From contig OX597835.1 in assembly GCA_951406725.2 (NCBI GenBank), positions 8,246,001 to 8,310,000 of the forward strand: a stretch of 64,000 nt of DNA, written 5' to 3'. Source of the DNA: Octopus vulgaris. Taxonomy: Eukaryota. A program made the position numbers and the translations under genes. Shown here one piece after another: positions 1,986 through 43,258 of the stretch; within the stretch, counting starts at the first letter, position 1; each line of letters opens with the position of its first letter. The notes under the pieces are model-generated. The model did not search any database. It was given only the letters and a program-made list of their open reading frames with translations, and was not told where the DNA came from.

Positions 1986-2287
1986 GTGACATACCGCTGT
2001 AGCAATTTCATCTCCGCAGTATTATGAACGGAAAATTCGACCTCCAGGGCCAGGGACAAATATATCCCGCCCTATAGAATATAAATATATCCAGCCTTAT
2101 AGAAATAGTAGATATGGGTGTGAGCTGTGCTCTATAGAAACATATGAAATTTTTAAGCATAAAGATAAAGGCAACTTGATTAATAAAAGATTAGACTTTA
2201 GGGTATCATGTGTACATAGTTTAACTCGTACTTTTAATTACTTTTGAAAGTTGCACTTTATAGGTCTTGTGATTGTACTGATCTTGA

Positions 2288-23536: not shown

Positions 23537-23700
23537 GGCGCAGGTGTGGCTGTGTGGTGAGAGGGTCGCTTGCCAACAACATGGTTCCGAGTTCAGTCTA
23601 ACTGCGTGGTATCTTGAGCGAGTGTCTTCTACTATAGTCTCGAATCGACAAAGCGTTGGGATTGGTTTTGGTAGACGGAAACCGAAAATCACCCAAGAAG
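23537..23700 (+). mobile_element. Old SINE A 5' fragment
   Basis: Diverged ggcgcaggtgtggctgtgtgg...ggtagacggaaac. Confidence 0.8.
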
Positions 23701-23982: not shown

Positions 23983-24038
23983 AATTTGTCAAAATATTTT
24001 CGTCGCTTTGAGACCGCGACCTGTTCACTGACAAAATT
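23983..24038 (-). ncRNA. Minimal hammerhead, G3-C8 swapped core
   Basis: Minus: AATTTTGTCA|GTGAACA|G|GTCGC-ggtctcaaa-GCGAC|GAAA|ATAT|TT|TGACAAATT; 7-bp stem I, 5-bp stem II, palindromic AATATT. Confidence 0.72.
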
Positions 24039-24911
24039 CCGTGCATCACGGAATTTTGTCAATGAACAGGTCGCGGTCTGACGTGTCGGAATATACTGGC
24101 TGTTTTAATTAAGAAATTCGCATCGTCAAACATTGGATTGTAAAAAGAGTATATAAAAACAGGCGTTATTAATTCATATCTTAATATTTTCCAGTCGCAC
24201 ATATTAGAAATATTAATTACCATATCCTATCGTAAATATGCTAAACATTTCAAAACATACTTTTCACTGATATTATGCATTTCAACAATTATAAATATGT
24301 TTATATTTTCTCCGATAAAACCAATATCGGATTAGAAATAAACAATAGCGGTTACACGTAATTTCTTAATATGTTGATCAATACTAATTATAGAAACAGT
24401 TGATGCACCAATATAAATATTCCGGCAACAATGTAATTCACGAACTGAAAGAAGACAATAGAATGTCCAGTTAGGTGTGAGCCGTGGCTCAAATTGAAAG
24501 TACAAAAATTAATATATTATTTCATTACAGGATATAGGTTAATTTATTGCAACAGAAATAGAACGAAGCAACATGAAAATCTTTGGTAAAATTAACAATT
24601 AGCTCAGAAAATTAATCAGTCTACACCTGAACATGAACAATAGGAAAACAATCAGTTGGCTGAAAAATAGGCACACTAGGAACGATTCTAAGTTTACTCT
24701 GTTTTTTATTGTTTATATTTTGTGTACACAAATTCTACCTAAAGCAACACAACGGATGTTTCAGATACAGAAGTATTGCGGGTATATACATACATACATA
24801 CATACATACATACATACATACATACATACATACATACATACATACATACATTCATACATACATACATACGTACATACATGCATGCATGTATATATATATA
24901 TATATATACAT

Positions 24912-25320
24912 ACAGTAAAAGCAATTAAGATTCAAGTGAGTTCTATTGAATTCACATGAATGCGGTACTTAACTTAGATGCACCAGAAATCTATATGGTA
25001 TTAACCATAAGATAAGGCGGGGTGATTATAAACAAGTAAAAAGCAACAAAAATGGATCAATATTTCGGTACAATTGTTTCGTACGAAGACCAGCTTTATT
25101 AAGACTGCAAATATTGCAGCAAATACAAGTGACCCGTACTCATCAGCCGAAAAAACATCTGAGTTCTCCAAACATCTAAGGGAATGAGGCTAAACTCCTG
25201 AAACATCAGGGATGGTTCTACAAAAATCAGATTTAGATAATAAATGGACTTCCGAAGTTCTTTAATGTTGCACAGTCATATAACAGGTTTTAAAAAAGTA
25301 TTTTAAAAAACCTCTCTATA
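24912..25320 (-). mobile_element. (TA)n-embedded mini-element family H3 (Penelope pLTR-like)
   Basis: Shares agattcaagtga...ggtactta...agatgcaccagaa...ggtgattata with 26060-26158, 40354-40490 and 43078-43195. Confidence 0.75.
25063..25152 (-). ncRNA. Type I hammerhead ribozyme, canonical core
   Basis: Minus: TTTCGG|CTGATGA|GTACG...CGTAC|GAAA|CAATTG|TA|CCGAAA; perfect stems, GUA cleavage between 25069 and 25068. Confidence 0.9.
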
Positions 25321-25329
25321 TATATATAC

Positions 25330-25407
<78 letters not shown>

Positions 25408-25710
25408 GTATATATATCCATTGTAGAAAAACATAAATCCGGAGACGAAACACTCTGAGATGTAGATCAGTTAATATTATAATGGGGGAGGCCGGTTTAT
25501 GGGGTTACACAGGATGATCCGTCTATAACGGTTTTGACTTTATGACGTATCCTCAGACCACAAACCTGTTGGCCTAAGACTTCATCAAAATGGTTTGATG
25601 ATACGCCATAAAACCAAACCCCTTATGGATGAGAAACTGAGAGTAACCCCATAAACCGGCCTCCCCATTATAAAATATATATTTGTATATATATATATAT
25701 ATATATATAT

Positions 25711-26158
25711 GATCAAAATAAGCAACAAGAATATCCAGAGGTTTCACGCTACTCCATTCAATTGAACAATGCAAATATTACATCAATTTAAAATGTAGAG
25801 CAATCTTCAGCTGCATAAAAATATAGAATTTTGTTAAATTGGAAGGACATATTTATACAAATGAGTCCTTCCAATTTAACCAAATTCTATATTTTTATAC
25901 AATGAGTCCTTCGAATTTACCTAAATTCTATATCTTTATGCAGCTGAAGATTGCTCTACATTTTAAATTGATGTAATGTTTGCATTGTTCAATTAAATGG
26001 ACTCGCATGAAACGATCGTACTGCATTACCTCTTGATATCCTTGTTGTTTATTTTGATTAGAATCACCTTATTTTGAATTATATGGATAATACGATACTA
26101 AATTCTGGTGCCTTTAACTTAAGTACCATATTCATCTTAATCTAAATTTCACTGAACT
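25711..26158 (+). mobile_element. Family H3 element arranged as a long fold-back palindrome
   Basis: Arms at about 25712-25848 and 25905-26059 are reverse complements; (TA)n on both sides. Confidence 0.85.
25938..26026 (+). ncRNA. Type I hammerhead ribozyme, canonical core
   Basis: ATGCAG|CTGAAGA|TTGC...GCAT|GAAA|CGATCG|TA|CTGCAT; 6-bp stem I, palindromic ACGATCGT. Confidence 0.85.
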
Positions 26159-40356: not shown

Positions 40357-40523
40357 TTCAGCCAAAAATTAGATTCAAATGAATATGGTACTTAGTTTAG
40401 ATGCACCAGAATTTTGTATGGTGTTATACATAGAAATCCGTGGGGTGATTATAATCAAAATAAGTAACAAGAATGATCCGTAATTTGGTACGAGTACCAA
40501 ATTCTTGTTGTCATTCTTGCTTA
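40354..40523 (-). mobile_element. Family H3 fragment with terminal fold-back
   Basis: aatttggtac (40482-40491) / gtaccaaatt (40494-40503); (TA)n flanks. Confidence 0.75.
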
Positions 40524-43039: not shown

Positions 43040-43077
<38 letters not shown>

Positions 43078-43080
<3 letters not shown>

Positions 43081-43258
43081 TTCAGCAAAATTTAGATTCA
43101 AGTGAATATGGTACTTAAGTCAGACGCACCAGAATTTTGTATGGTATTATCCATATAAATGATTATAATCAAAATAAGCAACAAGTATATCTTCATTAGT
43201 AGCATGAAACGATCGTACCAAATTACCGAAGATATACTTGTTGCTCATTTTGATTATA
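43078..43258. mobile_element. Family H3 fragment with fold-back; loop holds the HHR 3' half
   Basis: Arms 43164-43194 / 43228-43258; GAAA-CGATCG-TA-CCAAATT at 43206-43224. Confidence 0.78.

Follow-up and report, generated by a model that had tools for sequence, protein, structure and literature searches.

Known hammerheads of Penelope-like elements

Canonical hammerheads have been described in Hydra elements, a clade of Penelope-like elements (PLEs), including Hydra-1_Obim of Octopus bimaculoides (Craig et al. 2021, PMC8557442, section 11 of which gives the diagnostic features of the clade). Of the dimer-type hammerheads of metazoan PLEs (Cervera and De la Pena 2014, PMC4209133), single motifs gave no cleavage and dimers little in the assays reported there. 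The PLE hammerhead of the green anole is described as cutting only in the presence of the element's protein and as dispensable for insertion in vitro (Frangieh et al. 2024, PMC11167929). Our literature search, with most subscription journals outside its scope, found no paper on the element family described below. A recent octopus repeat annotation (PMC13282606) counts Penelope-like families, with neither ribozymes nor Hydra in its main text, and its supplements may already name this family. Hydra-clade hammerheads, including that of an octopus family, are therefore not new in themselves; the hammerhead of the present family differs in sequence from that of Hydra-1_Obim.

We analyzed a 64,000-nt stretch of the Octopus vulgaris genome (contig OX597835.1, positions 8,246,001 to 8,310,000; hereafter the window, whose own numbering is used throughout). 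Its best-formed hammerhead, at 25152-25063, very likely derives from the pLTR of a Hydra-type PLE and lies in a 401-bp, 5'-truncated copy; efficient cutting would then be expected only with a second copy or a protein, the lone copy probably being a near-silent relic. The motif is not a host ribozyme.

The hammerhead motif at 25152-25063

The type I motif spans 90 nt of the minus strand (25063..25152) and is supported by sequence, descriptor scan, folding, and covariation. Read 5' to 3' on that strand, it consists of the helix I 5' strand UUUCGG (25147..25152), the core CUGAUGA (C3-A9; 25140..25146), the helix II 5' strand GUACG(GG) (25133..25139), a distal hairpin that caps an extended helix II (25105..25119), the helix II 3' strand (UU)CGUAC (25081..25087), the core GAA (G12-A14; 25078..25080), the 8-nt palindrome ACAAUUGU (25070..25077), and, after A17, the helix I 3' strand CCGAAA (25063..25068). 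This strand order is the canonical one: CUGANGA, GAAA, and NUH follow each other, and helix I closes. Hammerhead numbering places the predicted cleavage site after GUA, with A17 at 25069 (25068..25069). Both strands of helices I and II and both core segments were located by the descriptor scan; the core segments were further supported by comparison of copies, the helix II 5' strand and distal hairpin by folding, and both helix II strands by covariation. A C-G pair of helix I is changed to U-A in one sister lineage, and two pairs of the distal hairpin are changed on both sides in sister lineages.

When both strands of the window were searched with the descriptor, two matches were returned: this motif and a weak one with a variant core at 19787-19693. 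Dinucleotide shuffles (n = 30) gave a strict match in 0/30 and a loose match in 5/30. A relaxed scan returned six matches, among which 25938-26026 (plus strand) is also a convincing hammerhead, of another family. Rfam had no match at its gathering score, and none of its 57 E-value matches was a hammerhead, a miss that is probably due to the 59-nt helix II domain.

These results largely bear out the first-pass annotation of this DNA, which had proposed from the letters a minus-strand hammerhead with an intact core and had singled it out as the best candidate for an active ribozyme; the descriptor and relaxed scans both rank it as the best formed. The 6-bp stem I is present (UUUCGG/CCGAAA), stem II, put at 5 bp or longer, comprises five Watson-Crick and two G-U pairs and extends further to the distal hairpin, and the cut foreseen at 25069/25068 agrees with a GUA triplet at 25071-25069. 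The structured loop hairpin is likewise real and forms on both strands, although the letters quoted for it were those of the plus strand.

A 5'-truncated element copy between microsatellites

Copy alignments place the motif within a 401-bp minus-strand piece (24915..25315), the 5'-truncated pLTR/end piece of a Hydra-type PLE. A first look for this repeat yielded 3,187 candidates, and the 40 that were scored were 91-95% identical. The base corresponding to 24915 is the last one in 29 of 30 fetched copies, which then pass into (TA)n. Most copies go on in shared sequence beyond 25315, and so the window copy is truncated at its 5' end; the 5' ends of other copies vary, and none has 25315 as a fixed boundary. 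Upstream, longer copies carry about 1.1 kb of 3' UTR and then a frame with reverse transcriptase (RT; YRDD) and GIY-YIG domains. Against the majority of the 30 copies, the window copy differs at 11/401 positions (about 3% divergence), one of them in the hammerhead.

The window is rich in microsatellites. A repeat scan found (TA)n at the truncated 5' end (25317..25417, no strand assigned) and (TA)n/(ATAC)n at the 3' end (24786..24914, likewise without strand), the latter being the insertion target, as copies also indicate; since both flanks are microsatellites, a target-site duplication is unreadable at 24915-25315. Downstream of the hammerhead, the minus strand holds the family's short end site at 25027 (about +36 to +42 from the cut), which may be the first start of reverse transcription, and then a 112-nt tail (24915..25026) that runs to the long end site (+154), where this copy ends. 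Two hairpins are predicted in the tail; in a sister lineage the distal hairpin forms a perfect inverted repeat, and its predicted fold makes it a candidate site for protein binding, located between the two starts.

Full-length relatives and clade placement

Full-length copies are laid out as a pLTR with hammerhead, about 210 nt, an ATG, the ORF, the 3' UTR, and a second pLTR that again bears the hammerhead, with unit lengths of 4,199 and 4,722 bp. Two copies (L064 and L065) have open frames of 1,071/1,072 amino acids (aa) with YRDD that are 99% identical, and their lineage is young and possibly still active. The family has the features of EN+ PLEs: a single ORF with RT and C-terminal GIY-YIG, pLTRs in tandem/inverted arrangement, 5' truncation, a one-sided tail, and a pLTR hammerhead. 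Profile searches saw little of this, with GIY-YIG remaining below threshold in Pfam (19.8 and 20.8 bits against a cut-off of 22.6; E 5e-4 to 1e-3), no Pfam RT match on the element protein or RT family on five homologues, and no match to the RT part in a PDB sequence search. The nearest relative among named proteins is an octopus one.

The placement follows sequence motifs. The protein has RWR in L064/L065 (RWK in L043/L047/L057), lacks GxK[FY], has DKT in place of DKG (DKTGN at residue 124), and carries a CxCX5C linker as well as CxxC and CxH around the conserved E and N (residues 931, 1028, and 1059). An endonuclease CCHH motif is absent: read by eye, the stretch from the IYK to the YVG strand has a single Cys and lacks CxxC. 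CxCX5C was present in 48 and DKT in 43 of 50 database homologues of at least 650 aa, and the published Hydra alignment rows agree by eye with the element protein motif by motif. Together with insertion into (TA)n, a Hydra-clade trait (29/30 copies), this suggests a Hydra-clade PLE, a placement drawn from motifs rather than from a tree with named references. Neptune, the clade label used at first, was rejected: its CX2-5CxxC linker is absent from the 1,071/1,072-aa protein, as is DKG.

The features shared with the Hydra clade as set out in PMC8557442 are the C-terminal GIY-YIG, the motifs RW[KR], DKT, CxCX5C, CxxC, and CxH without GxKF/Y, the (TA)n target, a type I hammerhead situated some 100-200 nt before the 3' end, and inverted 5'-truncated partners. 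The family is nonetheless separate from Hydra-1_Obim, whose hammerhead sequence differs and whose length is given as 2,507 bp as opposed to 4.2-4.7 kb here. Moreover, unlike Hydra-1_Obim and the Hydra clade as described there, the 1,071-aa protein has its RT and endonuclease separated by an Asn-rich insert (residues 470-930 are 26% Asn). The helix II domain has 59 nt here against some 12-35 nt for the Hydra rows in File S2; helix III is an even 8-nt palindrome, whereas most Hydra motifs listed have 3-4 bp and a 1-3-nt loop; and the tail has about 112 nt rather than 30-40. The unit of 4.2-4.7 kb likewise exceeds the "generally <3 kb" of Hydra elements, a length that is typical rather than diagnostic, because of the Asn-rich insert and the 3' UTR of about 1.1 kb.

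Three further observations concern these relatives. The Asn-rich insert of L064/L065 resembles that described for rotifer Penelope elements. Branch-point-like and 3'-splice-like sequences lie directly before the ATG (L068, L064, and L066); neither a donor nor a spliced joint was found in contigs of presumed-RNA runs covering the family. These contigs, which carry no information on RNA ends, strand, or level, also showed no pile-up. In a chimera (L074:102-2904; also L009 and L037), the family's long end is joined without TA to a 5'-truncated 806-aa frame of a different Hydra-type family (RT 49% identical), a tandem whose sequence suggests a template jump between families.

Conservation of the motif across the genome

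The exact core with the ACAAUUGU palindrome occurs in at least 267 genomic copies (control, 0), and sister lineages with ACGATCGT account for 490 copies genome-wide (control, 0), the counts covering 2.8 Gb. A generic short-loop hammerhead pattern matched 10,163 times versus 582 in controls, an excess of about 9,600 hammerhead-like motifs, among which at least 8 distinct loop 3 palindromes occur. Among the first 100 of 1,019 helix III loops listed for the family, a hand count gave 47 CAATTG and 49 CGATCG perfect palindromes, the remaining 4 being G-U compatible (3) or broken (1). The same count for the first 100 generic motifs gave 72 perfect palindromes of 8 kinds, 17 G-U compatible loops, and 11 that were neither; by chance, about 1/16 of such loops would be perfect palindromes.

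In nine chosen aligned copies, 92% of cells pair, compared with 32-44% in slid controls. Of the 29 pairs, 7 have both partners replaced; these lie in helix I, helix II, the distal hairpin, and the palindrome. Covariation thus supports helices I, II, and III, with the helix III pairs being formal (dimer) pairs that reflect few independent events. A shuffle control returned 0/500 for paired cells, 30/500 for pairs changed on both sides, and 312/500 for further pair types, values that overstate significance because the nine copies are related. Of 30 close copies, 27 retain the complete core. Between lineages the palindrome, which is of the dimer type, persists through paired substitutions; the AATT/GATC change amounts to a single lineage event or very few, and two CpG decays can produce it.

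Folding alone and in pairs

Folded as a monomer, the palindrome gives a helix III of only two pairs (A-U and C-G) with a 4-nt loop, a hairpin of +2.4 kcal/mol, whereas the self-duplex of two palindromes has a predicted 8-bp helix III at -6.4 kcal/mol. The lowest-energy fold of the monomer is not the hammerhead (-22.9 versus -20.5 kcal/mol), which takes about 2% of the predicted ensemble in a 96-nt RNA and about 0.05% in the 25040-25175 construct that had been proposed for a cleavage assay. A rough energy sum favored the dimer fold in 5/5 copies. At the level of predicted secondary structure, then, the stable helix III and active single-RNA fold of a canonical monomer hammerhead appear to be lacking, and helix II is much longer than the canonical 4 bp. 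Neither Mg2+ nor tertiary contacts enter the folding model, and a tertiary contact made by the long helix II could rescue the monomer. The relaxed scan found no second copy with the same palindrome inside the window. Of the "palindromic stem III" claimed at first, the palindrome stands, while the stem is a 2-bp one in the monomer; with its dimer-type helix III and predicted misfolding, the motif was described too strongly as "textbook" and "active".

The predicted misfolding is consistent with what PMC4209133 and PMC11167929 report: as the metazoan PLE hammerheads described there show little or no cleavage as monomers, or need a protein, a monomer cleavage test could fail despite a real ribozyme. 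Like the dimer-type hammerheads of PMC4209133, the motif is of type I, sits in pLTRs, and has a short palindromic helix III, an enlarged helix II, and G10.1-C11.1, and its copies are mostly solo, from truncated elements. It differs from those described there in having a full helix III/loop 3 instead of the minimal form, a far longer helix II, and no extra nucleotide between A9 and G10.1.

Read-through of the cut site and paired insertions

Of 619 copies with the 26 bases after the cut, 588 also have the 7 bases before it (a pattern that misses the window copy itself by one base), and no pile-up of 5' ends was found at the cut site, where at most 31/619 copies could end, point mutations included. 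Cut RNA is therefore not the main template, which we infer to be uncut or re-ligated RNA.

The family has two fixed ends; counted from the cut, the short one is at about +36 to +42 and the long one at about +154. One-sided tails are already published (PMC3846280; PMC8557442, Fig. 2 legend); here, both ends recur together in inverted insertions. On one contig (C1) with 97 hits, every divergent pair no more than 5 kb apart was taken, 22 in all. A script assigned 20 of these as one long and one short, and the other two, one of which over-ran into TA while the other had a (TA)n run inside its long arm, were read by eye as long/short, for a total of 22/22. For 21/22 long/short pairs against a coin flip, p = 5.5e-6. 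Among unpaired hits, 18 of 53 were fetched: 11 were short, 6 were long, and 1 ended at +29. The pairs suggest that one integration event primes both target strands at different fixed sites; PMC3846280 offers a rival source of inversions, self-priming on an antisense template.

Poseidon PAc of the green anole, as described in PMC11167929, shares with this family a hammerhead at the pLTR-ORF junction, two fixed downstream ends bounding a tail, an AT-rich target, and insertions that include an uncut hammerhead. The two differ in clade, in the cut site (26 nt inside the ORF in PAc; about 210 nt before the ATG here), and in the start sites, which are adjacent in PAc and about 112-120 nt apart here.

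Proposed mechanism and alternatives

For the Hydra-type element, we propose that in a tandem pLTR-ORF-pLTR transcript two hammerheads would pair via the 8-nt palindrome and could shorten the precursor by cutting it some 210 nt ahead of the ATG, the element's protein being an alternative folding aid for cleavage. The RT-GIY-YIG protein would nick (TA)n DNA and copy uncut or re-ligated RNA, with reverse transcription beginning at one of the two fixed sites downstream of the hammerhead; for the window copy, synthesis would have begun at the long site and broken off 401 nt later. A bolder extension, possible but doubtful, is that the palindrome and long helix II form a dimerization switch, in which two uncut pLTR RNAs pair in an RT-endonuclease dimer, one nicked strand of the (TA)n target is primed at +42 and the other at +154, and cleavage occurs only after copying. 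If true, this would link the hammerhead to the one-short/one-long rule of the inverted insertions (22/22) and give a role to a ribozyme that seems dispensable in vitro.

The reading closest to the first impression of this locus is an efficient monomeric ribozyme whose extended helix II docks on helix I and stabilizes the core, so that any minus-strand transcript through the copy would be cut, host pre-mRNA included if the site is intronic. The intact core letters here and in 27/30 close copies and the compensatory changes that conserve the long helix II would suit it, and fungal PLE hammerheads do act as monomers, but these have a long helix III (PMC4209133). A helix III at +2.4 kcal/mol and an active fold predicted at no more than 2% of the ensemble speak against it, as do a loop 3 whose palindrome persists across families although a monomer has no use for it, the tolerance of hundreds of intact copies, and the 300/300 window frames without a Pfam family above cut-off; we regard it as unlikely. 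Should lone copies nevertheless prove to cut as monomers, the thousands of them dispersed in the genome could influence host transcripts. The conserved palindrome and the copies that extend through the cut site would also fit a motif that serves mainly in pLTR RNA-RNA pairing (palindrome dimerization) or protein binding, with cleavage incidental, and anole hammerhead mutants are reported not to alter insertion in vitro (PMC11167929). Yet the catalytic core and NUH triplet are fixed across lineages whose loop II has strongly diverged, which points to selection on catalysis and makes such a purely structural role very unlikely.

Two other readings concern the copy itself. Its length of about 400 nt, non-coding nature, and type I hammerhead would suit a non-autonomous retrozyme monomer, a unit of short hammerhead repeats in tandem, in place of a truncated autonomous element. 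Non-LTR retrozymes (bioRxiv 10.64898/2026.07.22.740005) are likewise described as short and non-coding with a type I hammerhead, and their origin from PLE pLTRs is proposed there. But those are tandem, while there is no tandem repeat at 24915-25315 and the family is continuous with a coding element: other copies continue into the 3' UTR and ORF, with variable 5' ends and no fixed boundary at 25315. A retrozyme is accordingly highly improbable. That the copy was domesticated as a host regulatory ribozyme is scarcely credible. In its favor, the 90-nt hammerhead holds just 1 of the 11 differences private to this copy, where about 2.5 are expected by length, but this deficit is not significant. 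Against it, the copy is young (about 3% from the family majority), has microsatellite flanks, and shows no gene evidence.

The host context was assessed from frames. In 300/300 unmasked window frames of at least 45 aa, Pfam found no family above cut-off (one weak match, E 0.0096), and hence no host exon was found among frames of that length. Because Pfam also missed a Hydra endonuclease fragment at 2092-2244 that tblastn detected, this negative does not show the window to be intergenic and does not exclude a long intron. Xenopus retrozymes are reported to be depleted from introns (bioRxiv 10.64898/2026.07.22.740005).

The single locus at 25152-25063 matters little, as one dead fragment among hundreds in a genome with some 10,000 hammerhead-like motifs. 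The family as a whole is test material for the open question of what hammerheads do in PLEs, for it combines covariation of a dimer palindrome, a very long helix II, young copies with open frames, and two spaced ends in strict pairs.

Other elements in the window

Several further elements lie in the window. A head-to-head inverted pair of another hammerhead-bearing family occupies 25712-26058: its plus arm (25938-26026) has an intact type I motif with a CUGAAGA core, a U-U at the helix II base, and a ACGAUCGU palindrome, while helix III is gone from its minus arm. Another fragment of that family lies near 43062-43256. By tblastn (42% identity, E 3e-10), the fragment at 2092-2244 (plus strand) is the C-terminal endonuclease part of a different Hydra-type element. 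A tail fragment of a related family at 40373-40475, 77-78% identical to the tail region, adjoins (TA)n and apparently lies within a tiny inverted insertion.

Between (TA)n runs, 25420-25680 contains an imperfect inverted repeat of about 200 bp (25474-25676) with near-perfect terminal arms and, upstream of it, a GAAAC-containing stretch; this region is a candidate MITE-like or decayed hammerhead element. A 69-bp near-perfect palindrome is found at 24011-24079, and a SINE-like repeat of about 150 bp at 23537-23687 has more than 10 copies in the window.
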